Origin: Chthoniobacteraceae bacterium
Lineage (GTDB): Bacteria; Verrucomicrobiota; Verrucomicrobiia; Chthoniobacterales; Chthoniobacteraceae
DNA: 21,135 nucleotides
Assembly (NCBI GenBank): GCA_031409655.1
Contig: JANNXQ010000137.1
Coordinates: 1-21,135 of the forward strand
Reading direction: 5' to 3'
Shown here: positions 2,833 through 20,439 of the stretch, in pieces
Numbering within the stretch: the stretch's first letter is position 1
Layout: each line of letters starts with the position of its first letter
Made by a program: the position numbers and the translations under genes
Notes under the pieces: model-generated
Told to the model about the DNA's origin: nothing
Databases searched by the model: none
The model's input: only the letters and a program-made list of their open reading frames with translations

Positions 2833-2841
2833 CCGCCCACT

Positions 2842-3046
2842 TTCATCAAGAGTGACCGAGGGTTCTGGCCCGTAGAAGTCACGGCAACCGCCTGATGAAA
2901 GGATGAAGGCGGAAGGATGAAGGATGAAGAAGATGGGCGCACGAGGCGCTCTTCACTTCATCGTTCCGCCTTCATCCTTTTTCCTTTCGCCGGGGTCCAG
3001 GTGCCAAATCCAGCCCGAGGCGCGCAAGCGTCGAGGGGAAGATGAA
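2842..3046 (+). promoter_or_regulatory. SAM-I (S-box) riboswitch aptamer with an enlarged P3
   Basis: P1 TTCATC (2842-2847) pairs with GATGAA (3041-3046). ATCAAGAG; P2 GTGAC..GAGGG-TTCTGG-CCC..GTCAC; GGCAACC (2883-2889)...GGTGCC-AAAT-CCAG (3000-3013); pseudoknot CTGG/CCAG; P4 with a GCAA loop. Confidence 0.92.
2893..2988. repeat. Heptamer-repeat hairpin element 1 (GGATGAA units) inside riboswitch P3
   Basis: Left arm GGATGAA GGCGGAA GGATGAA GGATGAA (2901-2928). Right arm TTCATCG TTCCGCC TTCATCC TTTTTCC (2957-2984). Confidence 0.85.
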
Positions 3047-3127
3047 TGCAGGCAAGTTCCGCGCGGCTCGCAACCCCGGCACCGTCTTTGCACTCATTGG
3101 AAATATGATCCTTGGTGGGAGTGCAAA
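3041..3127 (+). promoter_or_regulatory. Riboswitch expression platform: RBS-sequestering hairpin with anti-sequestrator
   Basis: TTTGCACTC (3087-3095) and GAGTGCAAA (3119-3127) form a perfect 9-bp inverted repeat overlapping the GGGAG RBS before ATG 3132. GATGAATGCAGG (3041-3052) can alternatively pair with TTTGCACTCATT. Confidence 0.7.
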
Positions 3128-3131
3128 ACCT

Positions 3132-4394
3132 ATGGACAAACCGTCGCCCTATTTCTCGAATCTGAAGTGCCGCGAGTGCGGACGCCTTTACCCCAAACAG
3201 GCCATCCATGTCTGCGACTACGACTTTGGCCCGCTGGAGGCGGCCTATGACTATGAGGCCATCCGTGCGGTAATGACGCGGGCGGCGATCGAATCGCGGC
3301 CGCAGTCGATGTGGCGCTATCGCGAGCTGCTGCCGATCGATGGCGAACCGACGGTGGGTACGCAGGTTGGCTTCACGCCGCTGGTGAAAGCGGATCGGCT
3401 GGCGAAAGTGCTGGGCATCCGCGAGCTGTATATCAAGAACGACACCGTCAACTACCCGACGCTGAGCTTTAAGGATCGCGTGGTTTCGGTGGCGCTGAGC
3501 CGGGCGCGCGAGCTGGGCTTTTCGGTGGTGGCGTGTGCCTCGACGGGCAATCTGGCTAACTCCGTGGCGGCGAATGCGGCGAGCGTGGGGCTGAAGAGCT
3601 ACGTGCTCATCCCGGCGGATCTGGAGCAGGGGAAGGTGCTGGGGTCGCTGGTCTACGGGACGAATGTCATCGCCATCCACGGCGCCTACGATCAGGTGAA
3701 CCGGTTGTGTTCGGAGATCGCTGGGAAGTACGGCTGGGGTTTTGTGAATGTGAATTTGCGCCCTTATTACGCAGAGGGCTCGAAGACGATGGGCTTTGAG
3801 ATCGCGGAGCAACTCGGCTGGCGGCTGCCGCGGCATACGGTGATCCCGATGGCGTCGGGTTCGCTGCTCACGAAAATTCACAAGTCTTACAAGGAGTTCA
3901 TCCACCTCGGGTTGGTGGAGAAAAGCGCCTTCAGTGTGCATGGGTCGCAGGCGACGGGCTGTTCGCCGATTTCCGAAGCGCGGAAAAAGGGCACGGACAT
4001 CGTGAAGCCCGTGCCGAAGCCGAACACGATCGCCAAGTCCCTCGCCATCGGGACGCCCGCGGATGGTTACTACGCGATTCACTCGATGAAGGAGACCGGC
4101 GGCACGGCGGAAGACGCGACGGACGAAGAGATCGTCGAAGGTATCAAGCTGCTCGCGGAGCACGAGGGCATCTTCGCCGAAACCGCCGGCGGCGTGACTG
4201 TCGCCTGTGCGAGGAAGCTCATCGCGAACGGCTCCATCCCGCGCGGCGACAGTGCCGTGCTCTGCATTACCGGCCATGGGCTGAAGACGCAGGAGGCGAT
4301 CGTCGGGAAGTGCGGCGAGCCGCGGACCATCGCGCCAAGCTTGCGGGAATTTGAAGAGCAGATCTACAACGTGGACACCGCCGCCGCCACCTGA
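3132..4394 (+). CDS. thrC: Threonine-synthase-like fold-type II PLP enzyme; context suggests homocysteine/methionine synthesis
   Basis: N-terminal CRECG..CDYD, GFTPL, PTLSFKDR (PLP Lys), ASTGN, EGSKT, GIFAETAGG, ITGHGLK. Start moved to ATG 3132 because there is an RBS at ~3117-3121 and the upstream ORF part overlaps the riboswitch. Confidence 0.88.
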   Translation: MDKPSPYFSNLKCRECGRLYPKQAIHVCDYDFGPLEAAYDYEAIRAVMTRAAIESRPQSMWRYRELLPIDGEPTVGTQVGFTPLVKADRLAKVLGIRELYIKNDTVNYPTLSFKDRVVSVALSRARELGFSVVACASTGNLANSVAANAASVGLKSYVLIPADLEQGKVLGSLVYGTNVIAIHGAYDQVNRLCSEIAGKYGWGFVNVNLRPYYAEGSKTMGFEIAEQLGWRLPRHTVIPMASGSLLTKIHKSYKEFIHLGLVEKSAFSVHGSQATGCSPISEARKKGTDIVKPVPKPNTIAKSLAIGTPADGYYAIHSMKETGGTAEDATDEEIVEGIKLLAEHEGIFAETAGGVTVACARKLIANGSIPRGDSAVLCITGHGLKTQEAIVGKCGEPRTIAPSLREFEEQIYNVDTAAAT

Positions 4395-4402
4395 ACCTCT
4401 GC

Positions 4403-4490
4403 GTGAATGGTGATCGGTGATTGGTGGATCGACTTCCGCCTGCCGTCCGCGCGACCATCCACGAGTTACCGATCACCGATCACCATTCAC
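4403..4490. repeat. Heptamer-repeat hairpin element 2 (GTGATCG units), intergenic
   Basis: GTGAATG GTGATCG GTGATTG GTGGATC ... CATCCAC GAGTTAC CGATCAC CGATCAC CATTCAC. 4403-4421 and 4472-4490 form a perfect 19-bp inverted repeat. Confidence 0.88.
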
Positions 4491-4502
4491 ATCCGATCCC
4501 CA

Positions 4503-4775
4503 ATGCCCTCCGTCCTCATCCCCACACCCCTCCGCAAGCTCACCAACGAACTGGAAACCGTCAGCGCCGCCGGCGCGAATATCGGCGAACTGCTCGATAA
4601 TCTCGACGCGGCTTTTCCCGGCCTCAAAGACCGCATCTGCGACGAAGCCGGCAATGTCCGCCGCTTCGTGAATATCTTCGTCAACGGGGAGGATATTCGC
4701 TTTCTCGAAGAGAAGGCCACGCCAGTGAAGGACGCGGACGAGATCAGCATCGTGCCAGCGATTGCCGGCGGCTAG
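4503..4775 (+). CDS. MoaD/ThiS/CysO-family ubiquitin-fold sulfur carrier protein
   Basis: MPSVLIPTPLRKLT...RRFVNIFVNGEDIRF...SIVPAIAGG*, 90 aa with a free C-terminal GG. The longer ORF call (4407) only translates the repeat. Confidence 0.92.
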   Translation: MPSVLIPTPLRKLTNELETVSAAGANIGELLDNLDAAFPGLKDRICDEAGNVRRFVNIFVNGEDIRFLEEKATPVKDADEISIVPAIAGG

Positions 4776-4799
4776 AGGCCGGCGGAACGCAATTCTCCT

Positions 4800-5045
4800 A
4801 TGGAAGAAAAACAACGCCTCTGGCTCATGTTTCCCGCGCGGCTGATCACGCAGCCCGTGGTCTGGGAACTCGCGCAAAAATTCAAGGTCGTGACCAACGT
4901 GCGGCAAGCCAGCGTGACCGATGAGATCGGCATCGTCTCGCTTTCGCTGGGCGGCGAACGTGACGAAATTAAAAGGGCGATCAAGTGGCTCGAAGAGACC
5001 GGGGTCAAGGTGGAGCCAGTGGAGATCAATACGATCGAAGGCTGA
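4800..5045 (+). CDS. Stand-alone NIL-domain protein
   Basis: 81 aa: LMFP..ITQPVVWELAQKFKVVTNVRQA...LSLGG...AIKWLEETGVKVE, matching the NIL (MetN C-terminal-like) pattern. Confidence 0.82.
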   Translation: MEEKQRLWLMFPARLITQPVVWELAQKFKVVTNVRQASVTDEIGIVSLSLGGERDEIKRAIKWLEETGVKVEPVEINTIEG

Positions 5046-5050
5046 CGGGC

Positions 5051-5169
5051 CCCCGGGAGCGCCACCATCCCGTGCGGTAGTCTGTGGTCTGCGCGCAGCG
5101 CGCCCAACGAGGGAATGGCGCTGCGCGCGTTTGTTCGGACGGCCGCACGGGACGGCGGCGCTCCCGGGG
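5051..5169. repeat. REP/REPIN-like palindromic element, copy A, between convergent genes
   Basis: Outer arms 5051-5078 and 5142-5169 are 25/28 complementary. Inner perfect 11-bp inverted repeat at 5091-5101 / 5118-5128. Confidence 0.85.
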
Positions 5170-5170
5170 A

Positions 5171-7705
5171 TTAAAACTCCACCGGCGGCGGTGGGTCGAT
5201 TTTGATGGTTGTATCGACGGTCTGCACGGTGCCGGCTTGTTCGAGCGGTCGCACGGGTTCCGCGCGGCGCACCTCGATTTCCTTTTCCACCTCCGGCGTC
5301 TCGACGGGTGCCGGGATTTCCTTCGCGCTTTGCACGGGTGCCATCTGGCCGTTGAGCTGTTTCATGGCGATCAAGTTACTGATCGCCTGGCTGGAGTTGT
5401 AAGGATCTTCGCCAAGCACCGTGGGCGCGTTCAGCACGATGGGCGTATGGGCCGCCACGTTGACGGCGAGAGACGCCCGCGGCCATTCGGCACTCGGGAT
5501 GACTTTGACAAAGCTCTGAGGCGCGAACGTCCCGCTGTGATATTCGCAACCCCGCTTCGGCGCCTGTTCCTCGGTGCAGATCTCGAAGTAAGTGGTGCGG
5601 CGCTGGATGGTCTCTCCGGTCTCGCCGTTTTGGGCGGTCTCGACGCACTTGTCCGTCGCAAGCATGCCAGAGGCCGAGCAGATCTCGCATTTGAGCAGGC
5701 CCTTTGGTTCGGGGATTTCCTGCGCCTTGTAGTTGGCGAAGGTCGCCTTCATGACGTTCACCCAAATGGGGAGGGCGATGTCCTTGCTGAAGGCACCACG
5801 GTAGATGGGATGGGGCTTGTCAAAACCGGCCCACACGCCGCAGGTCACGGCACTCGAGTAACCGACGAACCAAGTGTCGGTGAAATTGTAAGCGGTGCCC
5901 GTCTTGCCTCCGAGTGGGAAGCGCTTCAGGCCGAGTTCCGTGAAAGTGGTATCGGCGGTGCCGCGCTCGAGCACATCGGCGAGGCAGCTATGCACTTCGT
6001 AAGCGGTGGTCGGTTTGAGCACGCGCTTCATGGGCGTGCGGCCTTGGAAAATCACTTTACCGTCCTTGGACTCGATGTGGTCGATGATGAAGGGTTTCTC
6101 CGGTCGCGTGCCGAGATTGGGGAAAAGGGTGTAAGCGGTCGTTAGCTCCATGAGGTTCACCTCACTGCTGCCGAGATAGGTCGCCGGGAAGGGGCGAAGA
6201 GGGCTTTCGATGCCAGCCTCCTTGGCGAGTGGGACCACCTTATCAAGGCCGGTCATCATGCCCATCAGCACCGTAGCCCCATTCTTTGATTTCATGAGCG
6301 CGGTGCGCGCGGAGATTGTGCCTTCGTATTTGTTGTCCACGCGCTCGGGCCCCCATTCGCCGAGGATCCCGGTCGTCCCACCGATCATGACTTTGCGATT
6401 TTCAAAGACCTCGTCCTTTAAAACCGTGCCGGGGAAATGGCCGCGCTCGAAGGCGGCCGCATAGACGATCGGCTTGAAGGCGGTCCCGGGTGGACGTTGC
6501 GAAGTCAGCGCGCGGTCGTACTCGCTGTGCTGAAACTCGCGACCTCCGACGAGCGTTAAAATTCCGCCCGTCGCATTGTCGAGCGCCACGATCGCGCCTT
6601 GTAAATACTCAGGCGTGGGGAGCGGCGGGATGTCGGCCGCATCCGGTGCCGCCAGCTTTCGCTCACGCGCCCGGAACTGCTGGTCGTAGTCCGAGAAGGT
6701 CGCACCTTCAAAACCCTCATGCCGCTCGACGGTGGCGAGCTGATCGCGGAGCGCCTGCTCCGCCTTTTTCTGCAGCTCCCCATCGATCGTCGTGTGAATC
6801 CGGAGGCCGTCGCTGATCGCTGAGTCGCGACCGAACTGCGCGATGACCTGCTGCGCGACGACGCTGAGCGCATACGATTCCTGATGGATCTGCTGCCGAT
6901 TTTTTACGAAAAACTCCTGGGTGATCGTGGCGTCGTATTCGGCCTTGGTGATGCTCCCGAGTTCGAGCATTCGACCGAGGACAAAGTTGCGCTGTTCGAG
7001 ACAAGCCTGGCGGTTCTTCCACGGCGCGAGATTGTTCGGGCTCTTGAGCATTCCGGCCAAGGCAGCGGCTTCGGAGAGGTTCACGTCCAGCGCGCGCTTG
7101 CCGAAATAGCCGCGGGCCGCCGCCTCCACTCCGTAGAAGCCTGAGCCGAAGAAGACACGGTTCAGGTAGAACTCGAGGATCTTCGCTTTGTCGTGACGCT
7201 TCTCGATTTCGCGGGCGACGAAGATTTCGAGCAGCTTCCGATGGTAGCCGCGGTCGTTGCTGGGGAGTTCGTCGGGGAAGGAGTTGCGGGCGAGCTGCTG
7301 AGTGAGCGTGCTCGCGCCCTGGCGGGTGCGTCCGGCCCGGTAGTTCTTCACCATCGCGCGGATGATGCCCTGATAGTCCACTCCAGAATGTTGATAGAAG
7401 CGGGTGTCTTCTGCGGCGACGACGGCCCGCAGAAGTTCGGGCGAAATCTTGTCCAGCGGCACCTTGTCGCGGTTCTGGATGAAGATGCGCCCGAGGACCG
7501 CGCCGGCGCGGTCCAGGATCACGCTGGCAGACTCCATCTCGCTGAGCTCGCGGTAGTCGTAAGCCGACGCGCGTTCCTCCCATTTGCTTTTCTCCATCCA
7601 CGCCCAGGTAAAGGCGACGATGAGCAGGCTCGCGATCAAGGCTAGGGGGATCCATAGCCATGGGCGGCGATAGAAGGCGGTGCGGTTTTGCTTAAGGTTC
7701 CACAT
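5171..7705 (-). CDS. mrcA: Class A penicillin-binding protein (PBP1A; transglycosylase plus transpeptidase)
   Basis: N-terminal TM helix; EDTRFYQHSGVD, GASTLTQQL, YLNRVFFG; transpeptidase motifs GTAFKP, SKN, KTGT; Cys-rich C-terminal extension. Confidence 0.92.
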   Translation of the reverse strand: MWNLKQNRTAFYRRPWLWIPLALIASLLIVAFTWAWMEKSKWEERASAYDYRELSEMESASVILDRAGAVLGRIFIQNRDKVPLDKISPELLRAVVAAEDTRFYQHSGVDYQGIIRAMVKNYRAGRTRQGASTLTQQLARNSFPDELPSNDRGYHRKLLEIFVAREIEKRHDKAKILEFYLNRVFFGSGFYGVEAAARGYFGKRALDVNLSEAAALAGMLKSPNNLAPWKNRQACLEQRNFVLGRMLELGSITKAEYDATITQEFFVKNRQQIHQESYALSVVAQQVIAQFGRDSAISDGLRIHTTIDGELQKKAEQALRDQLATVERHEGFEGATFSDYDQQFRARERKLAAPDAADIPPLPTPEYLQGAIVALDNATGGILTLVGGREFQHSEYDRALTSQRPPGTAFKPIVYAAAFERGHFPGTVLKDEVFENRKVMIGGTTGILGEWGPERVDNKYEGTISARTALMKSKNGATVLMGMMTGLDKVVPLAKEAGIESPLRPFPATYLGSSEVNLMELTTAYTLFPNLGTRPEKPFIIDHIESKDGKVIFQGRTPMKRVLKPTTAYEVHSCLADVLERGTADTTFTELGLKRFPLGGKTGTAYNFTDTWFVGYSSAVTCGVWAGFDKPHPIYRGAFSKDIALPIWVNVMKATFANYKAQEIPEPKGLLKCEICSASGMLATDKCVETAQNGETGETIQRRTTYFEICTEEQAPKRGCEYHSGTFAPQSFVKVIPSAEWPRASLAVNVAAHTPIVLNAPTVLGEDPYNSSQAISNLIAMKQLNGQMAPVQSAKEIPAPVETPEVEKEIEVRRAEPVRPLEQAGTVQTVDTTIKIDPPPPVEF

Positions 7706-7810
7706 CAGGGCAGCAACAAAGCGGCGCTTTAAGTCCCATGGATTTCAGGTGCGTGCAAGGCTCGATGCCGTGAACCGGATGGGCCCGCTCCAGAGTTTGA
7801 ATGAGCCCGT

Positions 7811-8581
7811 TTACTTGTGCAGCAGACCGGCAATGTGGGTGGCGAGAAAGACGGTGTTCAGCAGCACGAGCACCGCGATCAGTTTATCCGAGTGGCCGGG
7901 CTTTTCTCCCACGACCGTCGGTTCGCGCAGCAGAAAGGCCAGGACCGTGGCGCCGGCAAACCAGGTCGCGTAGTTTTGCAGCGGAGCGGTGCTTGGTTGA
8001 TTGCTCGCGGGCGCGTACCACGACCACCAGCCACGCAATTGGGACGCGAGCGATTCCAGATTCCAAATGGTGAGAACGGCGCAGATGCCGGCACCGAGGG
8101 CGACCTGGGTATGGCTGGCGTGCCGGAAGCAGCGCATCCAGAGCGCGCGGCCGCCAAAAATGAGGATCAGCCAAAGGAGCGGTGCGCACGCCGGAACCAG
8201 CCCGAGTTTTGCCCCGAAGCGCAGACTGTAGCGGATCGGTCCAAGCGGCCAGGTCGTCCCCACACTGAAGGCCGCGATAGTCGCGCCGCCGACGAAGACG
8301 ATCAGCGCCCACCGGCGCGCGACGGCGATGCCGTGGGTGTCCGCGAGGCACAAATAGGCGCTGGCCGCGGCGAGGGCGATCCAGATGGCGTCCGCCAGCT
8401 TGCAAAGAAGGACGAGTGCCGAGCGCAGGCCGAGATTTGGGATCCAAGCGTCGAGTTGTACCTCGCCGATACCGGTCGTCCAGAGCACCCCGACGAGGAC
8501 CGTCCAGAGGAGGAAAAGAATCCAGAGGATCGAGCCGAGAGGCTCGAGCCACAGGCCGAGGAGTGAGACGCGACGGAGCAT
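7811..8581 (-). CDS. CruF-like (carotenoid biosynthesis/hydratase family) membrane protein
   Basis: Multi-pass hydrophobic protein with WPLGPIRYS..G..LG.VP...PLLW, WWSW and PLQNYATWF motifs resembling the CruF family. Confidence 0.65.
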   Translation of the reverse strand: MLRRVSLLGLWLEPLGSILWILFLLWTVLVGVLWTTGIGEVQLDAWIPNLGLRSALVLLCKLADAIWIALAAASAYLCLADTHGIAVARRWALIVFVGGATIAAFSVGTTWPLGPIRYSLRFGAKLGLVPACAPLLWLILIFGGRALWMRCFRHASHTQVALGAGICAVLTIWNLESLASQLRGWWSWYAPASNQPSTAPLQNYATWFAGATVLAFLLREPTVVGEKPGHSDKLIAVLVLLNTVFLATHIAGLLHK

Positions 8582-8650
8582 AGGAGTACGGGCGGCGGGT
8601 GGCGCCGTTCGTATCGCTCGCTCCGCGCTCCTGGGCAGGCGCGGAGACTT

Positions 8651-9760
8651 TTAAGCGATCGATTCAGCCTGCCCGCCTGGAAAGCCTTGCAGCTTGAGGC
8701 TGCTCAGGGCCGCGCGCACTTCGGAGTTCAGCTCCGCGAGCATCTCGCGAGTGATCTCGGCCTGCGCGGCCTTGAACTGCGCCCATTCGCTCGCGGTCTT
8801 TTGCAGCCGGGCGTAAGCCTCGGCCATGTAAGCGCGAGCGGGGGCGGTAAGCTTGGGGCATTCAAGCTTGGTTTCGAATTGGCGCTGGGCTTCCGCCAAC
8901 TGGGAGAGGAGAATTTTTTCCGAAGGCACCCGGCGCAGATCGGAGGTCAGACCGAGTTTCGAGAAGGTCCAGATAATCCACTTTGTGGGGTCAAACTGCC
9001 ACGGCTTCACGCCATTCCGGTAGTCGTGCTGAAACTCGTGGTGATAGTTGTGATAGCCTTCGCCGAAGGTGAAGACCGCCATGAGCCAGGAGTCGCGGGC
9101 GCTGCAGTTTGAAGAATACGGACGGTTGCCGATGTAATGGCAGAGGGAATTGATGCAAAAGGTGCAGTGCTGGAGGAAGACGACGCGAGCGACGCCGGCG
9201 ATGAGGAACCCACCCAAGGCCGAAGACCAACCGCCCCACAGGTAACCGAGGATGGCCGGAAGGATGAAGGCGATGAAAACGCCGATCCACTGCACGTAGC
9301 GATGCTGCCACATGACGAGCGCGTCCTTCTTCAGATCGGGGACGTTTTCATAAGTCACGTCGGGCCGGAGCTTGAACATGAGCCAGCCCATGTGGGCGTG
9401 AAAGAGTCCCTTGGAAATGTCGTAGGGATCATCGTCGTGATCGACGTGCTTGTGATGAGTGCGATGCTCGCAACTCCACATGAGGGCGGAATTTTCAAAC
9501 GCGCCCGCGCCAAAGATGAGGGTGCCCAGCTTCACGGACCAGTGCGCCTTAAAGGCCAGATGGGAGAAAAGCCGATGGTAGCCCAAGGTGATCGAGAAGC
9601 CGCACAGGGCGAGCATCACGAAGAACATCGCCGCCTGAAACCAATCGAGCCCGAAGTGCCAGATGTAGAGCGGAACGGCAGTGAGCGAGAGGAAGAGGGT
9701 GCCGATGAGGAACGAACTGGTGATCCAGTTCACTTTGGCGAAGGGAATGCGCGGAAACAC
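8651..9760 (-). CDS. Acyl-CoA/acyl-lipid delta-9 desaturase (OLE1/DesC type)
   Basis: His boxes GYHRLFSH, HRTHH, INSLCH, GEGYHNYHH and DPTKW. Start uncertain: GTG 9760 preferred, ORF open to 9853. Confidence 0.92.
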   Translation of the reverse strand: MFPRIPFAKVNWITSSFLIGTLFLSLTAVPLYIWHFGLDWFQAAMFFVMLALCGFSITLGYHRLFSHLAFKAHWSVKLGTLIFGAGAFENSALMWSCEHRTHHKHVDHDDDPYDISKGLFHAHMGWLMFKLRPDVTYENVPDLKKDALVMWQHRYVQWIGVFIAFILPAILGYLWGGWSSALGGFLIAGVARVVFLQHCTFCINSLCHYIGNRPYSSNCSARDSWLMAVFTFGEGYHNYHHEFQHDYRNGVKPWQFDPTKWIIWTFSKLGLTSDLRRVPSEKILLSQLAEAQRQFETKLECPKLTAPARAYMAEAYARLQKTASEWAQFKAAQAEITREMLAELNSEVRAALSSLKLQGFPGGQAESIA

Positions 9761-9942
9761 TGTGGAAGGATTTTGAGTGGTCAGTGGAAGTGGGGATGGG
9801 CGCGTGTCCTGTAGAAGCAAACATCGTGCGGTGCAACCGGAAAAGCCGACCATGGTTTTGGTTTTCTCGTATCTGAAATTCCGCGCGGTGGTGGCCTGAT
9901 GAGGGGAAATGCGTCCATTCGGTGACGATCAAAAATGCGGTG

Positions 9943-9972
9943 TTGCACCCGCGGCTCCGCGCCGAATACCGT
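9943..9972 (+). promoter_or_regulatory. Possible sigma70 promoter giving a leaderless or near-leaderless helicase mRNA
   Basis: TTGCAC-N18-TACCGT, 8 nt before ATG 9981; no Shine-Dalgarno sequence visible. Confidence 0.35.
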
Positions 9973-9980
9973 CCGGCCTG

Positions 9981-11195
9981 ATGTCATTCCAGGATTTTGG
10001 CCTTCTCGATGAGGTCGTACAAGGTGTTAAGGCAATGGGCTACGTCGATCCATCGCCGATCCAGCTCCGCGCAATTCCAATCGTGCTCGAGGGCCGGGAC
10101 GTGATGGGCTCAGCGCAGACTGGCACCGGCAAGACGGCGGCCTTCGCGCTGCCCATCCTCACCAAGCTCAAGCAACACGGCAAGATGCGGGCGCTCATCC
10201 TCGAGCCCACACGGGAGCTGGCGGCGCAGGTGGATACGGCTTTTCGCGATTACGCCCGGTTTATGGACGTGCGGGTGGGCTTGGTCCACGGCGGCGTCGG
10301 CTACGGCAAGCAGCGCGAAGATCTGGCCAACGGACTCGATGTCCTGGTGGCAACGCCGGGTCGGTTGCTCGATTTCATGGAAGACGGCACCATCAAGCTC
10401 GATGCCATCGAGTATCTGGTGCTCGATGAAGTGGACCGAATGCTCGACATGGGCTTCCTCCCGCAAGTCCGGCGGATCGTCGATCGCGTGCCCAAGCAGC
10501 GCCAGACGCTCTTCTTTTCCGCGACGCTCCCTCCGGAACTCGCCACGATGACGAAGTGGCTGCTCAGCAACCCCGAGACGATCGAGATCGGGGCGCGGCG
10601 GTCGCCTGCGGAGACGGTGACGCATGCGCTTTATCCCGTGGCGAAGGATCAAAAATTTGACCTGCTCGTGGCCCTCCTGGAGCGGACGAATTTTGACAGC
10701 GTCATCATTTTCAGCAGCACGAAAGTGATGGCCGATAAGCTCACGCACTGGCTCAAGGACATGAAACACTCGGTGGCGGCGATGCATTCGGATCGCACCC
10801 AGAGCGAGCGGCTGGATGCGCTGGAAGGCTTCAAGGCCGGAAAATATGAACTCCTCGTGGCCACCGATCTCGCCGCGCGCGGGCTGGATGTGGCCGGGGT
10901 GAGTCACGTCATCAATTACGACGTGCCGGGACATCCCGAGGACTACGTCCATCGCATCGGCCGCACCGGTCGGGCACAGCTCACGGGCGACGCCTTTACG
11001 CTTTTTGTCGCGGAGGAAATGGACCATGTTCGAGCCATCGAGCGGTTCATCGGCTCAAAGATTCCGCGGCTGAAGCTGGAAGGCTTTGACTACACCTACA
11101 CGACGCTCTTCAACGAGGATTCGATCCCAAAGGGCGGATTCGGCAAAGGCGTGCGGACGCTCAAAGGCTACTCATTCGGCCGCCGGCGGAAGTAG
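9981..11195 (+). CDS. rhlE: DEAD-box RNA helicase (RhlE-like)
   Basis: MSFQDFGL, Q motif PSPIQ, AQTGTGKT, PTRELA, TPGRL, DEVD, SAT, ARGLD, HRIGRTGR. Confidence 0.92.
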   Translation: MSFQDFGLLDEVVQGVKAMGYVDPSPIQLRAIPIVLEGRDVMGSAQTGTGKTAAFALPILTKLKQHGKMRALILEPTRELAAQVDTAFRDYARFMDVRVGLVHGGVGYGKQREDLANGLDVLVATPGRLLDFMEDGTIKLDAIEYLVLDEVDRMLDMGFLPQVRRIVDRVPKQRQTLFFSATLPPELATMTKWLLSNPETIEIGARRSPAETVTHALYPVAKDQKFDLLVALLERTNFDSVIIFSSTKVMADKLTHWLKDMKHSVAAMHSDRTQSERLDALEGFKAGKYELLVATDLAARGLDVAGVSHVINYDVPGHPEDYVHRIGRTGRAQLTGDAFTLFVAEEMDHVRAIERFIGSKIPRLKLEGFDYTYTTLFNEDSIPKGGFGKGVRTLKGYSFGRRRK

Positions 11196-12419
11196 CGGGT
11201 GAGGGGATGCACTGGTGAGCGCGAGGATGGCATCCACGGTTCGAGCAGGGCCGTGCTCTTGCGCCCAGCGTTCCGCTCCCGCATCGGCGAGTGCGGCCAG
11301 GCCGTCGAAGTCGCGGATGGCTTGGGCCGTAGCGATGAGCACTGATTCTGCGGTCCACTGCGGGAAGGCGACACCGCCGCCGAAATCGAAGGCCGTCCGC
11401 GCGAGCGTCGTTTCGGCGGGCACGACGAGCGGGATTCCATTGGCCACCGCTTCGCAGGCGACTGCGGAATACGAGGCGACGAAGCGATTCGACTCGTAGG
11501 GGCAGACGATCAAGTCAGAGCTTTCCAGGAGCTGTGCCCAGTGGATCTCGTCGGCGGTCTTTTCCTCCACGACGAGACGGCGGTCGCGGGCGGCGATGCG
11601 AGTGAGCGCTTCCTGTTCCGCCGGCGCTTCGCCGACGCCGCCGTTGTGCGCGAGGAGGCGCACCTCGGAGCCGGGGAAAAGCTGGAGCAACCCCTCGAAG
11701 ATCGCCGGCACAAGGTGATAGCCCTTTTCCGGGCGCTGATGTCCGAGCACGGCGACGGTGATCGGCCGGAGACCGATCCGCGAACGCGGGCGGGTGACGC
11801 GGTTGCGCGCGACGGGCAGAGTGGCGACGGGGCGTCGGAGGAGCAGTTCGTAGATCTCGCTCGAGGCGCGGTCGAAGGTGCTCATCCGCAGCCGGCGCTG
11901 GACGCTTTCGTCCATTTCATTGGCGGCGAGACGCAAGAAGACCGCCCGCGGATCCTGCCGGGGATCGCGGATTTCCGCGTTCAACCCCGTGGGCGTGCGT
12001 TGCAAGTCCAGTCCCGGGTCGATGCCAAATTCGATGAGCGCGTGCTGAATGTCCGGCGCGTCCCGCAACCAGCCAACGAGGGCCCAAAGTTGCGCCGCCT
12101 GGCCGGAGTGCAGGAAGACGACGTCCTCCGGTCCGGGCGCAGGATTGAGGGTGCGCAGATCTTCGATGGTCAGGCGCGTCGTCTCGAGGAAAGCGGCGAG
12201 CCATCCGCAGATGGGATCGCCATCGCTATAGTGATAGGTAAATCCGCGGAAGTGCGGCCGGGCGGCGAACTCTTCCTGGAGCCTTGGCTCCACCTGCGAG
12301 CTGGCGAAGACATGGGTCTCGACGCCCCGCCGGCGCAGTTCCCCGACGATGGCACGGGCGGATTGCGCGTGATGCCCGACGTCCCCGAGGAGTCCTGGAT
12401 CGCAGAAGAAAAAGCGCAT
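11172..12419 (-). CDS. Glycosyltransferase (GT-B, GT4-like)
   Basis: N-terminal DPGL..DVGHH; LGHQRPEKG; SDLIVCPY...SAVACEAVANGIPLVVP. Its 3' end overlaps the helicase 3' end by 24 bp. Confidence 0.72.
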   Translation of the reverse strand: MRFFFCDPGLLGDVGHHAQSARAIVGELRRRGVETHVFASSQVEPRLQEEFAARPHFRGFTYHYSDGDPICGWLAAFLETTRLTIEDLRTLNPAPGPEDVVFLHSGQAAQLWALVGWLRDAPDIQHALIEFGIDPGLDLQRTPTGLNAEIRDPRQDPRAVFLRLAANEMDESVQRRLRMSTFDRASSEIYELLLRRPVATLPVARNRVTRPRSRIGLRPITVAVLGHQRPEKGYHLVPAIFEGLLQLFPGSEVRLLAHNGGVGEAPAEQEALTRIAARDRRLVVEEKTADEIHWAQLLESSDLIVCPYESNRFVASYSAVACEAVANGIPLVVPAETTLARTAFDFGGGVAFPQWTAESVLIATAQAIRDFDGLAALADAGAERWAQEHGPARTVDAILALTSASPHPLLPPAAE

Positions 12420-12474
12420 CAAATTCCCTGATCACGTCGGCTCGCGAGCGCCGGCCTGGCTTCGGGCGCTCGAT

Positions 12475-13053
12475 CTAGGAGGACTGCGGTTCCGTGGGCG
12501 TCGGCCCCTTCAGGCGCTCCTCGATCTCCGTGAAAATCTGCCGGGTCGGGTCCGGGTCGAACTTGTAGTCGTCGATGACGAACTGCCGCTGCTTGCCCCC
12601 GATCTGATAACGCACCGTGGCGAGCCCCTTCGCGTCCCAGTTTTTTTTCCCGAGTCCGGTGATCGCCTCGAAAGGCACCCGGTTGCCAGACGGCGTGTAC
12701 ACCGCTTGGTCATCGGAGCGCAGGACGCGGCCCTTTTGCGTCAGCCAATAGATCAGCACGGTGCTGCCGATCACACAGAGCAGGCCCGCGAGGACGAACT
12801 GCACATTGATGTCCTGCTGCTTGTGCAGCTTGTGCGGCTTCTCGGTGACCCAGCCGCGCGACTTCGCATACTCGCGCCAGCCAGCCATGTTCCGCGCGTT
12901 TTCGTACTCCTCGTATTTGACGAAGCGCTCGTTGCTCTTCGGATAACCGACGGCACCGTCCCAGAAAAACCAGCCACCGATCGCGATCAGAAAGAGAGAG
13001 ATGAAGAGCTTCTGCTTCTTCCAAATAGAGGTGACGCGTGCTTCGGCGGGCAT
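12475..13053 (-). CDS. Hypothetical two-TM membrane protein (192 aa)
   Basis: The natural-looking part of the 407-aa ORF starts at MPAEARVTSIWKKQK; two hydrophobic helices and a soluble C-terminal domain. The upstream part is an off-frame reading of queG. Confidence 0.75.
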   Translation of the reverse strand: MPAEARVTSIWKKQKLFISLFLIAIGGWFFWDGAVGYPKSNERFVKYEEYENARNMAGWREYAKSRGWVTEKPHKLHKQQDINVQFVLAGLLCVIGSTVLIYWLTQKGRVLRSDDQAVYTPSGNRVPFEAITGLGKKNWDAKGLATVRYQIGGKQRQFVIDDYKFDPDPTRQIFTEIEERLKGPTPTEPQSS

Positions 13054-13105
13054 GGGACGGGCACTCTTGCGGGAGATGCGGCGGGTGACTAGCGGAAAAA
13101 ACTCG

Positions 13106-14224
13106 TCAGGGAAATCGTTCGCGGATGTGGGCGATGGCCCAGGCGGCGTGCTCGGCGATGAGCGGCTCGGGATCGGCGGCGGCGCGTTCGAGCGTGGGCA
13201 GGTCGTCGAGCGTGCCCACGTTTCCGAGCGCGACGCAGACGTTGCGGAGGAAGCCGCGGCGCTTGATGCGTTTGATCGGGGATTTCTTAAAGAGCGCGCG
13301 GAAAGTGGCGTCATCGAGCGCGAGAAAATCGCGGAGGGTCCAGCCGTGGACAAACTCGCGCGCGGCGAAGGCCGTCTCGCGGCTGGCTTTCGCAAAGCGA
13401 TTCCAGGGGCAGGCGTCGAGGCAGTCGTCGCAGCCGTAAATGCGGTCGCCCATGAGGGAGCGGAATTCTTCGGGGATCGCGCCTTTGTGTTCGATGGTGA
13501 GATACGAGACACAGCGCCGGGCATCGAGTTGGTGGGGGGCGGTGATGGCCTGTGTCGGACACGCGACGATGCAGCGAGTGCAACTCCCGCAGCGATCTGG
13601 GAGCGGGGCGTCCGCCTCGAAGTCGAGGGTGGTGAACACTTCGGCGAGGAAGAACCAGGTACCGAGCTGCGGATGGATGAGCATGGTGGATTTCCCATGC
13701 CAGCCCGCGCCAGCGAGTGCGGCGAAGTCGCGCTCGAGCACTGGCCCCGTATCCACGTAGCACCGCTGTTTTCCGCCGCGCGCGGTGAGCCACTCGTCGA
13801 GGACGCGCAGCTTTTTCTCGATCAACTCGTGGTAGTCATCCCCCCAAGCGTAGCGGGCAATGCGGTGGTTCGTTCGATGTTCGGTGTTCGATGTTCGATG
13901 TTCGATGTTTCCGTCCGCGACCACCTTTTGCGAAGAGAACATCGAACGTCCAACATCGAACGTTGAACATCGAACGGCGGACTCTCCGACGGGATCGCCT
14001 TGGAAGTAACTGAGCGCCAGCACCACCACGCTCTGCACGCCGGGCAGCACTTCGTCTGGATTCGTCCGCCGATCCGCATTTCGCTTCAGCCACTCCATCT
14101 CTCCTGCGCGCCCGTCGTCGAGCCACGCGCGAAACTCCGCGGCATGGGGCGGCGGCTGCGCGCGGGCGATGCGGCAGAGATCAAAGCCGAGCGTGGCCGC
14201 GAGGGTGGTGAGTTCCGTCTTCAC
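13106..14224 (-). CDS. queG: Epoxyqueuosine reductase
   Basis: G.M.WL, IARYAWGDDYH, VDTGPVLER, CGSCTRCIVACPT, RCVSYLTIE, GCDDCLDACPWN, RNVCVALGN. The GTG start overlaps the aroK TGA (GTGA). Confidence 0.95.
   Translation of the reverse strand: MKTELTTLAATLGFDLCRIARAQPPPHAAEFRAWLDDGRAGEMEWLKRNADRRTNPDEVLPGVQSVVVLALSYFQGDPVGESAVRCSTFDVGRSMFSSQKVVADGNIEHRTSNTEHRTNHRIARYAWGDDYHELIEKKLRVLDEWLTARGGKQRCYVDTGPVLERDFAALAGAGWHGKSTMLIHPQLGTWFFLAEVFTTLDFEADAPLPDRCGSCTRCIVACPTQAITAPHQLDARRCVSYLTIEHKGAIPEEFRSLMGDRIYGCDDCLDACPWNRFAKASRETAFAAREFVHGWTLRDFLALDDATFRALFKKSPIKRIKRRGFLRNVCVALGNVGTLDDLPTLERAAADPEPLIAEHAAWAIAHIRERFP
13871..13976. repeat. Heptamer-repeat hairpin element 3 (TGTTCGA units), in frame within queG
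   Basis: CGTTCGA TGTTCGG (TGTTCGA)3 TGTTTCC, a 22-nt loop, then GAGAACA TCGAACG TCCAACA TCGAACG TTGAACA TCGAACG. Confidence 0.9.
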
Positions 14225-14763
14225 GCGCCACTCTTCCACGCAAAGGCTTCGCGCGCCGCCGCGATCACCGCGTCCGCCGACTGCCGATGGGTGAAGTGCG
14301 TGGTATCGACGACGAACGCAGCCGCCTCTTCGTACACCGCGCGCCGTTCGGAAAGCATCTTGGTCACTGTTTCGCGCGGGTTCTCGGTCTGGAGGAGGGG
14401 ACGCTTCGTATTGCGCGCGACGCGGCTGAAAATCGCCTCTTCGCTGGCCGTGAGACAGACCACGAATCCGAGTCCCCGCAGGAGCGCCCGATTCTTCTCC
14501 CGCAAGACGGCCCCGCCGCCCGTGGCGATGACGCAGCGCGAAAATTGCGCCAGCGATTCGATGGCCGCCGTCTCCTGATCGCGGAAGCTCTCCTCGCCCG
14601 CGGTCGCGAAAATCTGCGGAATCGGCAGGCCCGCGCGCTCGACGATGAGCGCGTCGGTATCGAGAAACTGAAAGCCCATGCGCGCCGCGACGATGCGCCC
14701 GACCGACGATTTTCCACTGCCCATGAAGCCGACCAGGATGATGTTCTTGCGATGCGCAGCCAT
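14221..14763 (-). CDS. aroK: Shikimate kinase
   Basis: NIILVGFMGSGKSSVG, DTD, GEESFRDQE, IATGGG, RPLL. Confidence 0.95.
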   Translation of the reverse strand: MAAHRKNIILVGFMGSGKSSVGRIVAARMGFQFLDTDALIVERAGLPIPQIFATAGEESFRDQETAAIESLAQFSRCVIATGGGAVLREKNRALLRGLGFVVCLTASEEAIFSRVARNTKRPLLQTENPRETVTKMLSERRAVYEEAAAFVVDTTHFTHRQSADAVIAAAREAFAWKSGA

Positions 14764-14810
14764 GGCGCAGCGTGGAAACTGAAAGCGAAAGTGGGAAGTG
14801 GATTCTGCGA

Positions 14811-14913
14811 CCCGGGAGCGCCGCCGTCCCGTGCGGCAAACGGAACGGACGCGCCCAGCGCCATTCTACAGAGGATGCGGAGTTTGCCGCCCGAGGACGG
14901 CGGCGCTCCCAGG
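14811..14913. repeat. REP/REPIN-like palindromic element, copy B (inverted relative to copy A)
   Basis: 14811-14837 is the exact reverse complement of 5142-5168 (27 bp). The interior ACGCGCCCAGCGCCATTC matches copy A at 17/18. Its own arms are 14811-14841 and 14882-14913. Confidence 0.85.
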
Positions 14914-17998: not shown

Positions 17999-19348
17999 TT
18001 ACTGGGTGACTTTGAGTCGGACGAACTGTTTCGCTCCCGACGCGGGAATGGTGACGATCACTTGGTCCTTCAGGCTTCCCGGGGTGATGGTCACAGAAGC
18101 ACTCCTGCCCGCGATCACGGGGATGGCGGTCCAGTTGACCTGATCGGTGCCGTATTCCACCAGGTGAGCGATGGAGGAACGCGAAGCCGCACTGCGCTCG
18201 TAAGCGAAGACCCATTTGCCGCCACTAAAGGTCAGCGTGGGGAGAACCGACCGCGAAGGCGTCAGTGGAGCGCCACCGAGGGTGAACTCCAGCAAGTTTC
18301 CGACACCGTCGAGTTCGGGATCATCCAGTGGGCCGTCGTTCGTGCCGGAGGTGAGGCCGTGCTCGGGTTTGGACACCCAGGCGCGGTAGGGAGAAGGGGC
18401 CGCGAGGAAGGGGACGACACTCGCGACTCGGAACCCGAGGTGTTCGTAGGCGCCCATGGGGGCTGCGGGAACACGGATGTCGGCCCGGAGGAAAATCCAG
18501 GAGCTATCCACGTCGCCCCCACGATACCCGCGATTCTCGGTCGCGGAATCATTCGATCCATCAAAAGCACTCTCAAACCACTCCCACATGCACCCATTTT
18601 GGCCGAATGTGCCATAAGGATTCGCCCCTCCGACCATCGTTGCCGCACTTGGGATCAAATCATCGAACGTTGGGGTAAAATCTTGCACGAAGACGGCGTC
18701 GTACACCGGATCCCCAGGGAAATTCTTGCCATTAGGGACTTCGTTGCTTCCCACCGCGTAGGCCCAATAGTTCGCCGTTGGCCCATCGTTCTTATGATAG
18801 GCGGCCTTGCACCACTCGTCCTCGCTCGGCAGGAAGTAATACGCGTCCTTGTGCCGGTAAAGGTTCTCCCCGCCCGCCTGCCACGCCTCGCCGCTGCTCC
18901 ATAAGTTCATCCCTGTCACCTTGCCGTTGACGTCGGCGGTCAGATTGTAGGCGGCTTGCCGTCCCGTGCTCGTGTTCAGCCAGTTCACAAACTTCGCCCC
19001 ATCGAACCACTTGATGGTGGCGGTGGGTTGGATGCCAGTCCACGGCCCCGATTCCACGGGCGACATCCCTGAAGCCGTCGCTTTGTCGATTACTTCCTGA
19101 GAGGTCTCGAAGGTCGCGATCCGAAACTCGTAGGCCACGCTGCCGCGGGGAGGGGAGTCGACGCCGCCCTCGGGGCCGGGGTGATTTCCGTTTCCGGGAT
19201 TGCCGATGTGGGCGAAGTCGATGTTGAAGACGTTTTCCCCGCTCCCAAAACGGTCCGTGGTGATCGCGATGGACCCAGCCTGCGTGACGCCGACCGCAAG
19301 CCCGCTGAAGCACAGAGCGGCGAGAGTAGCCTTGAGGGTCGTTTTCAT
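17999..19348 (-). CDS. Secreted FGE-sulfatase (SUMF1-fold) domain protein with a ~100-aa C-terminal tail domain
   Basis: Signal peptide MKTTLKATLAALCFSGLAVGVTQA; IGNPGN, FVNWLN, LPSEDEWCKAAY, YGTFGQNG.MWEW, RGG, GFRVAS; tail DGVGNLLEFTLG...FVRLKVTQ. Confidence 0.85.
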   Translation of the reverse strand: MKTTLKATLAALCFSGLAVGVTQAGSIAITTDRFGSGENVFNIDFAHIGNPGNGNHPGPEGGVDSPPRGSVAYEFRIATFETSQEVIDKATASGMSPVESGPWTGIQPTATIKWFDGAKFVNWLNTSTGRQAAYNLTADVNGKVTGMNLWSSGEAWQAGGENLYRHKDAYYFLPSEDEWCKAAYHKNDGPTANYWAYAVGSNEVPNGKNFPGDPVYDAVFVQDFTPTFDDLIPSAATMVGGANPYGTFGQNGCMWEWFESAFDGSNDSATENRGYRGGDVDSSWIFLRADIRVPAAPMGAYEHLGFRVASVVPFLAAPSPYRAWVSKPEHGLTSGTNDGPLDDPELDGVGNLLEFTLGGAPLTPSRSVLPTLTFSGGKWVFAYERSAASRSSIAHLVEYGTDQVNWTAIPVIAGRSASVTITPGSLKDQVIVTIPASGAKQFVRLKVTQ

Positions 19349-19639
19349 TTTGAGTTGGAGATCGTAGTTTTGTGCAGCTTGGCTAATTCCACTTCTTCCG
19401 CCCATCGCTTCCGCAAAATGGGCGGCAACTGGTTCCGCCCCACGTCGGACAATGGACGCACGGCGCTTGCAGGAGGAGAAAGAGCAGCGGCCAAGGTGAG
19501 TGCAGAACCTGGTCGGCTCTTGCCTAGGTTCAGCCTCCGCTTGCTGCCAGGTCACTGTCCAGTGCAACGCTTACTAAAGATGGTGAAAACTGGCGATAAA
19601 TTTCGCCACGATGACCGATCCGCACCACGAGCACGGCAT

Positions 19640-19807: not shown

Positions 19808-20439
19808 CATGAGAGCGTCTCGGCGCTGTGCGCGGGCGGCAAGGTGGTTGCGTGGGGAGACAACAGTTATGGCCAACTGGGGAATTCCGGTGCGGTGGGG
19901 CAAAGCGATCTGCAGGTGGCGGTGGTCATGCCGGGTTTGTCCGGACGGCACGGTGAAGGCGTGGGGTTACAACAGCAGTGGTCAGATGGCTAACGGTAGC
20001 ACGGCGGATAGCAACGTGCCGGTGCCAGTGAGCACTATGTAGCAGCGACCAGCGGCTCGACCGCAGCCCACAACCCGTGGCGCGACGAGTGGGGCATGTC
20101 CGCAGGCAACTCCGGCCCGACGGAGGGCTACGACCCCACGATGGTCTCGCGAATCTCCTCGAATACGGCCTCGGCCTGATCCCGACACATGGGGGTTCCT
20201 TGCAGCCCCCGCAACCGGCGTTCGGCATCGACGCCTTCTATGGCAGGTTCATGGTCATCAGCTTTACGCAGCCCGAGGAGGTGACCGGCATCACTCATGA
20301 CGCGGACTGGACGCCGACGATGGCCGCTGGAAGCTGGGTGCCGGTGCCGGACACCGGTAGTGGCGGCTTTCACGTCTTCTTCGTGCCGCTCGGCGCGGAG
20401 CCGAAGGGCTTTATGCGGCTGAAAGTGACGAGCCCGTGA
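19808..20439 (+). pseudogene. Decayed RCC1-repeat surface protein with the same type of C-terminal tail
   Basis: ALCAGGKVVAWGDNSYGQLGN, frameshift, CPDGTVKAWGYNSSGQMANGSTADSNVPV*, shift, SGSTAAHNPWRDEWG..NSGPTEGYD, shift, HDGLANLLEYGLGL...GFMRLKVTSP*. Confidence 0.8.

Follow-up and report, generated by a model that had tools for sequence, protein, structure and literature searches.

The 21,135-nt stretch of DNA analyzed here (the window) is contig C137 of the Chthoniobacteraceae assembly G000 (6.85 Mb, GC content 63%, completeness 95%), sequence of which is matched in freshwater-sediment sequencing runs. It contains three hairpins, E1, E2, and E3, located in a riboswitch stem, an operon spacer, and a protein-coding gene, respectively, each built from inverted arms of about four to six 7-nt units. 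The units of all three flank a TIGR02436/PF05635 four-helix-bundle gene elsewhere in G000, and all three sites carry an element in some genomes and none in others. We consider it highly probable that E1 to E3 are gene-less members of a family of heptamer-armed cassettes whose full form carries such a gene. The hairpins and their hosts are as follows.

2840..3048, plus strand: SAM-I (S-adenosylmethionine) riboswitch, host of E1 (RF00162; 60.6 bits against a gathering cut-off of 44.4; E = 4.7e-12)
2894..2929, plus strand: left arm of E1, about 5 units of GATGAAG (5.0 by Tandem Repeats Finder [TRF]), one of them a GCGGAAG variant
2951..2991, plus strand: right arm of E1, degenerate, with the counterpart of the GCGGAAG variant mirrored in it
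3132..4394, plus strand: threonine-synthase-like (thrC-like) gene, upstream of E2 (TIGR00260, above cut-off; putative start codon)
4403..4431, plus strand: left arm of E2, about 4 GGTGAT(C/T)-type units, 8 nt past the thrC-like stop codon
4457..4490, plus strand: right arm of E2, ending 12 nt before the moaD-like ATG
4503..4775, plus strand: MoaD/ThiS/SAMP-like gene, downstream of E2 (PF02597)
4776..4799, plus strand: moaD-NIL junction, empty in the window
13106..14239, minus strand: queG, host of E3 (TIGR00276, 379 bits; gene call with putative start codon)
13871..13909, strand not assigned: arm of E3, 5.4 units of GTTCGAT as read on the plus strand
13937..13976, strand not assigned: partner arm of E3, 5.6 units of GAACATC as read on the plus strand

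An earlier note on this DNA had placed hairpins at these three positions and in these three settings, and the hairpins are confirmed by TRF, stem analysis, and RNA folding. The same note described two regular arms per element; in E1 and E2, however, the right arm is degenerate, TRF reporting none in E1 and 2.4 copies in E2. The core stem of E1 (2898-2922/2956-2980) is 96% complementary, and the predicted RNA folds of the three elements have z-scores of -5.9 to -6.4; for each element, 0 of 200 shuffled sequences folded as well.

The identity of the SAM riboswitch is predicted by the Rfam model RF00162, the P1-P4 core being present and the gathering score exceeded; its P3 segment measures 108 nt in the window, compared to 24 nt in the congeners G001 and G003. 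E2 occupies the 108-nt spacer between the thrC-like and moaD-like genes. The arms of E3 are about 28 nt apart and the translated element is in frame with queG, so that the QueG linker has 48 amino acids (aa) in the window, compared to 13 aa in G001 and G002. The polarity of E3 is the less common one for its unit, GATGTTC coming first in 11 elements and GAACATC in 45. DNA contigs of sequencing run X1 match E2 (3996-5169) and E3 (two overlapping pieces) with 0 differences, and X1 may be the source sample; E1 is not spanned by any X1 piece among the matches listed.

The genes that follow the E1 riboswitch are ordered threonine-synthase-like, MoaD/ThiS-like, and NIL. The placement of a SAM riboswitch before thrC-like, sulfur-carrier, and NIL genes (2840-5045) suggests a methionine/homocysteine role for this operon rather than threonine synthesis.

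A genome-wide family and its four-helix-bundle gene

Arrays of period 7 number 411 in G000, compared to 105, 67, and 54 for periods 6, 9, and 12 and 5 to 20 for periods 5, 8, 10, and 11. Among 231 pairs of arrays within 3 kb, 108 are inverted, 91 of them less than 100 nt apart, and 16 are direct, none of them that close. A looser scan found an inverted partner within 700 nt for 349 of 491 arrays, compared to 3 of 300 arrays relocated at random. Inverted pairing so far above the relocated control, together with the excess of period 7, indicates a hairpin family that is not due to chance, and the outcome that the earlier note had named as a refutation, few other copies in the genome, was not seen. 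In total, the looser scan yielded 210 paired elements and 142 solo arrays in G000, with dozens of kinds of repeat unit and a median stem length of 5.1 units (interquartile range, 4.2 to 5.7). A family defined by its 7-nt period and structure, as the note had proposed, is therefore well described by these elements, but the shared consensus that it offered, GRTGWWS, fits only 36 of the 210. Long arrays probably break assemblies, and counts in fragmented genomes are accordingly lower bounds; a very long perfect 7-mer run upstream of trpG in G019 (locus L181), for example, lies at a contig end. Nine further in-frame hairpins of about 24 to 40 codons were seen on C53, C55, C103, C127, C130, C234, C239, C253, and C273 (L163 to L171).

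The loops have no unusual structure (mean z-score, -0.21; n = 168) and almost no 12-mers in common. Their sizes are bimodal: 203 are shorter than 150 nt, none measures 150 to 340 nt, and 7 measure 348 to 432 nt. Six of these seven long loops enclose a TIGR02436/PF05635 four-helix-bundle gene, and the seventh covers part of an unrelated gene between two smaller elements. G000 has 10 such four-helix-bundle genes, of which 8 have inverted arms above threshold, one of period 6. Each unit of the window is found among the filled copies: GATGAAG on C12, C63, and C184; GTGAT(C/T)G on C239; and GAACATC on C144, where the arm order is opposite to that of E3. The suggestion that the window hairpins are the empty form of a cassette carrying a gene of this family thus proved correct, short-loop and filled copies with the same units and arm design both being present in G000. 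Furthermore, the arm of E1 and its inner, non-repeat flank are identical over 41 nt to an element on C55, indicating that these copies share ancestry; this match alone was retained from a wider test of inner flanks, which was confounded by anchors lying inside the arms for several families.

We examined 101 four-helix-bundle loci in G000 and its relatives, mostly the better-scoring of 158 TIGR02436 matches in 41 genomes, which gave 99 proteins, 98 of them distinct. Inverted arms are present at 85 of 98 loci, and the best period is 7 in 76, 6 in 11, 8 in 10, and 9 in 1. Among 66 period-7 loci, the distance between units drops as protein identity rises (Mantel rho = -0.29; 0 of 2000 permutations). 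Units differ by 1.64 mismatches from those of the closest proteins in other genomes, and by 3.27 between cassettes of the same genome. On the protein tree, a quick one with SH-aLRT support only and 38 of 93 forks open, like units cluster across genomes. It is the protein clade, rather than the host, that the repeat unit follows. Very large expansions of GAACATC are seen in two genomes (148 pattern hits in G000, 217 in G012), each of which has a GAACATC-armed gene.

Arms of other periods were also observed. The protein encoded at C23:6337-6663 of G000 (L067) and its relatives form a well-supported clade of eight four-helix-bundle proteins with hexamer arms, and other groups have octamer arms, which suggests that the period itself tracks the clade. 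At C179:4200-4421 (L070), the four-helix-bundle gene is apparently frame-shifted and its arms are weak. Two PF13366 (GxxExxY-type) genes of G000, at C84:19617-19955 (L071) and C28:11569-11919 (L072), seem by eye to have 9-periodic flanking arms and look like a parallel system with another cargo.

Turnover at orthologous sites

Depending on the genome, an orthologous site is empty, holds a gene-less hairpin (often of another unit), or holds the filled cassette. Empty sites, which the earlier note had predicted, are seen at P3 of the riboswitch, the QueG loop, the moaD-NIL junction, and the trpE-trpG junction. P3 could be parsed in 27 of 30 loci and holds a heptamer hairpin in 4 and none in 23, the latter including G001 and G003; the unit is GATGAAG in G000 and of GTTGA type in G002, G007, and G031. 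In the thrC-moaD spacer, G003 has a hairpin with the unit of E2, and single pyrimidine-rich arms of other units were recognized by eye in G001, G002, G012, G022, G025, and G028. On the ThrC tree, which is poorly resolved outside the genus, G001 and G003 come out as close sisters, but they are unlike at two junctions. In the QueG loop, which was parsed for 27 of 30 loci, the period-7 score is at least 12 in five genomes; 297 control windows taken from the same genes score no higher than 7. Hairpins with three different units occupy this loop in G000, G025, and G028, and the arms in G036 and G012 are partial or single.

The full range of states is seen at junctions between genes. The moaD-NIL junction, compared in 30 loci, is empty in the window, carries hairpins in G002, G003, and G010, and holds a full four-helix-bundle cassette in G022. 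Of 30 loci compared at trpE-trpG, 4 hold the filled cassette, 1 carries a hairpin of that unit but no gene, 12 are short, another gene occupies 1, and the remaining 12 were unparsed; at moxR-DUF58, the cassette is filled in 3 of 30, with gene-less hairpins built from other units in a further 3. Units also differ between genomes in the in-frame loops of UbiD (parsed in 17 of 25) and squalene-hopene cyclase (23 of 25).

Gene-less copies have some support for an origin by deletion of the gene between the arms: the start of the trpE-trpG loop of G015 resembles the gene start of filled orthologues, a likeness reached by 19 to 40 of 5000 shuffles when the comparison is anchored, post hoc, at the 5' end. 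There is also some support for overwriting, in which arms are written around host sequence. In UbiD of G012 the arms flank the native WPAAPD motif at the native linker length (32 aa, compared to 30 to 31 aa). E3, in turn, looks as if it had been inserted as a whole, since its flanks sum to a normal linker.

When DNA contigs of runs X1 to X4 were compared with the window and with C144:24000-40000, no clean empty allele of this organism was found. Joints across the arms in these runs derive from other copies or organisms (sides <30 nt), and a joint of 2891-2991 with 23 other letters is the short P3 of a relative. One low-depth X3 contig has a different loop at C144, which is a weak hint only.

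The window has several further features. A second, non-periodic hairpin family with GC-rich, REPIN-like arms is present at 5051-5169 and 14811-14913; genome-wide, its arm motif occurs 235 times and forms 79 inverted pairs, and a copy lies within 500 nt of a Y1 transposase match in 0 of 13 cases. A solo pyrimidine-rich, approximately 6-periodic run lies directly before the start of the shikimate kinase gene (14770-14800, minus strand) and is possibly half of a hexamer version of the paired arms. A secreted, FGE-sulfatase-like protein is encoded at 17999-19567 (minus strand), and a gene fragment at 20077-20439 (plus strand), with no family match, has a C-terminal motif similar to that of this protein.

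Mechanism, competing explanations, and significance

On balance, we lean toward copying or replacement at the DNA level, guided by the cognate pentamer together with host enzymes, with survival at tolerant sites. Arms of about five units (as in the median stem), five chains in each of the solved relatives 2RLD and 2GSC, and clade-specific units together point to a partnership between protein and arm; a homopentamer is also described in PMC4990558. The four-helix-bundle protein, five-chain by its solved relatives, would bind about five cognate 7-mers per arm, and the bound protein would stabilize the folded-back arms. Host recombination or repair would then paste the stabilized arms into, or over, tolerant sites. 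Gene-less copies would come both from loss of the gene between the arms and from arms written around host sequence, and template switching from arm to arm would keep the two matched. The hairpins likely persist because the host sites suffer little from an additional closed stem or flexible peptide. We infer the binding of the arms by the protein, the catalytic step, and this neutrality. Arm-to-arm covariation, anticipated in the earlier note, was found: deviant bases are mirrored in their own partner arm in 435 of 812 cases, compared to 8091 of 24549 (33%) in swapped partners, a contrast inflated by the preselection of elements for good native stems. Mirroring is above the swapped mean in 126 elements and below it in 30.

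Alternatively, the hairpins could be functional RNA elements, that is, RNase III cleavage stems like the intervening sequences (IVSs) of rRNA, or pentamer operators controlling translation or stability downstream. The stems predicted for E1 to E3 are strong, G000 encodes RNase III, and an IVS stem of Coxiella with GACAGAT heptamers is described as being cut by RNase III (PMC4990558). The placement of the elements, which rests on rough gene calls made for this analysis, is in keeping with such a role. Of 210 elements, 139 lie in co-directional junctions, 46 in divergent and 9 in convergent junctions, 11 in coding sequence, and 5 at contig edges. Convergent junctions are thus avoided relative to divergent ones in a genome that has 720 of the former and 733 of the latter (P = 3e-7 by junction count and 0.011 among junctions of at least 80 nt), and 77 of the 139 co-directional elements end -30 to +20 nt from the next start codon, much as heptamer runs of TAACTGA are described as abutting start codons in Beggiatoa (PMC4679880). 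Regulation finds its best argument in this tendency of the elements to sit near gene starts and to avoid convergent junctions.

An RNA stem under selection would, however, be expected to favor G·U pairs on the sense strand, and no such preference was found in 150 oriented elements (184 G·U and 194 A·C; 58 versus 57 elements), in 85 filled cassettes (100 G·U and 117 A·C), or as overdispersion from element to element (P = 0.70). This strand symmetry fits a DNA-level process and speaks against selection on an RNA stem. Copies in coding sequence, a small post hoc sample, in fact pair worse on the sense strand (4 G·U and 17 A·C; 0 versus 7 elements). Furthermore, cutting without re-ligation would break queG and the riboswitch, and the same sites in close relatives have no element or have other units. 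As for an IVS proper, E1 to E3 lie in a riboswitch, a spacer, and queG rather than in an rRNA gene, although a further copy in rRNA is possible, the assembly containing no 23S gene. We regard a functional RNA as unlikely.

More improbable still are units of the MITE (miniature inverted-repeat transposable element) or REPIN type, moved in trans by a separate transposase such as Y1/RAYT, with the four-helix-bundle gene a mere passenger. REPIN/RAYT and Rickettsia palindromic elements are dispersed hairpins, some of them in frame, in which a short form is related to a gene-bearing form. The inverted-arm design, more than 200 dispersed copies, 13 Y1_Tnp matches in G000, founder variants common to several loci, and the resemblance of E3 to a unit insertion in a normal-length linker are all compatible with mobilization of this kind. 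But an array lies within 500 nt of 0 of the 13 Y1 matches (background, 629 of 5347 genes) in a linkage check of the Y1_Tnp family, so that the flanking of a RAYT gene by repeats, typical of REPIN/RAYT, is not seen. Nor is there target-site duplication, 4 of 208 pairs of flanks sharing at least 6 nt, compared to 4.9 expected, with element ends that are only approximate. The present arms are tandem heptamers of many units with no terminus common to them and almost no loop sequence in common, their partner gene is no known transposase, and the tracking of unit by clade is not expected of a passenger. Of the description "non-autonomous mobile or RNA-processing element" in the earlier note, the family and its turnover stand, whereas a classical transposon and RNA processing appear unlikely.

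Independent slippage products, perfected to hairpins by template switching with no dedicated protein, are very improbable: the 142 solo arrays, the locus-specific loops, and the strand symmetry and mirrored variants expected of template switching suit them, but the dominance of period 7 and the recurrence of a few units across loci are left unexplained, and the wrapping of 85 of 98 four-helix-bundle genes in the same way, the link of unit to clade, and the exact shared flanks largely refute them.

Several observations weigh against DNA-level copying guided by the pentamer, in addition to the preselection in the mirroring test. The protein family has no known catalytic activity, and binding and movement are predicted only. 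The bias toward divergent over convergent junctions is not explained by neutrality alone. Large gene-less families (the AAACGCC/CGTTTGG/AAACTCC types, AGAGTTG, and AGATTTC) have no filled partner in the 95%-complete assembly, and G011 has a hairpin but no TIGR02436 match. G008 and G054 have cognate proteins of 82 to 84% identity, yet no exact GATGAAG triple. Co-occurrence of unit and clade at the level of genomes is modest (4 of 7 versus 7 of 53, P = 0.017; 5 of 10 versus 8 of 50, P = 0.031), with P values that come from kin genomes that are not independent and from thresholds chosen by the analyst. The gene remnant in G015 is not significant when unanchored or at the 3' end, and a comparison with the whole gene is equaled by 56 to 967 of 1000 shuffles. 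Overwriting is represented by a single locus, UbiD of G012.

The component pieces of this system are already known separately. The 23S rRNA IVS of Coxiella with S23p/PF05635 is the closest in content: as described, it has inverted arms around a PF05635 gene, a sporadic distribution, and tandem GACAGAT heptamers of variable copy number upstream of the open reading frame (PMC4990558). Here, about 200 copies with many units are spread over operon junctions, protein loops, and a riboswitch, and RNase III excision is known only for the IVS. Paired repeats of Geobacter metallireducens, described as 4 to 5 tandem 7- or 8-mers, mostly in opposite-strand pairs, both inter- and intragenic and of several unit classes per genome, are similar in design; the account of them interprets the repeats as regulator sites or RNAs and, in the parts that concern them, does not connect them with four-helix-bundle genes or with turnover of sites (PMC2700814). 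Heptamer arrays of GGGAATC in Xanthomonas form 70 to 75 inverted pairs per genome, mostly intergenic, but are reported for one unit, studied as a quadruplex, and as commoner between convergent genes than between divergent ones, the opposite of G000 (PMC4692102). In P6b of the Nostoc tRNA-Leu intron, a variable RNA stem of 7-nt motifs has had one class repeatedly replaced by another at the same site, as in P3 of the riboswitch; this is a single locus, for which the passages on the stem name no cargo gene or protein partner (PMC4476775). Avd of diversity-generating retroelements belongs to a probably related fold family, as judged from a weak PF22296 match (25 bits, compared to a cut-off of 40); no reverse transcriptase (PF00078) was found in the 95%-complete G000 assembly. 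The union of heptamer arms with a four-helix-bundle gene outside rRNA was not found in searches of the open-access literature.

To these precedents the window adds a genome in which three units coexist with three cognate clades, turnover at each of the three sites, and an adjoining junction that exists in three states. Three separate published puzzles are thereby joined: the over-representation of heptamers, the PF05635 protein of rRNA IVSs, which has no assigned function, and the swapping of classes in one RNA stem. The pairing of clade and unit supplies cognate and non-cognate controls for a binding assay, and fixed sites in three states supply a direct readout for a movement assay. In practical terms, the elements add 25 to 35 residues to enzymes such as QueG and lengthen riboswitch stems, which confuses annotation and alignment. 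More boldly, and as a possibility that we hold only tentatively, each protein clade may read its own 7-base word and drive arms into or over host DNA with no transposase or reverse transcriptase of its own, rewriting riboswitch stems, junctions, and protein loops. If true, such clade-specific reading would assign a function to the large PF05635 family and account for much of the bacterial excess of heptamer repeats.

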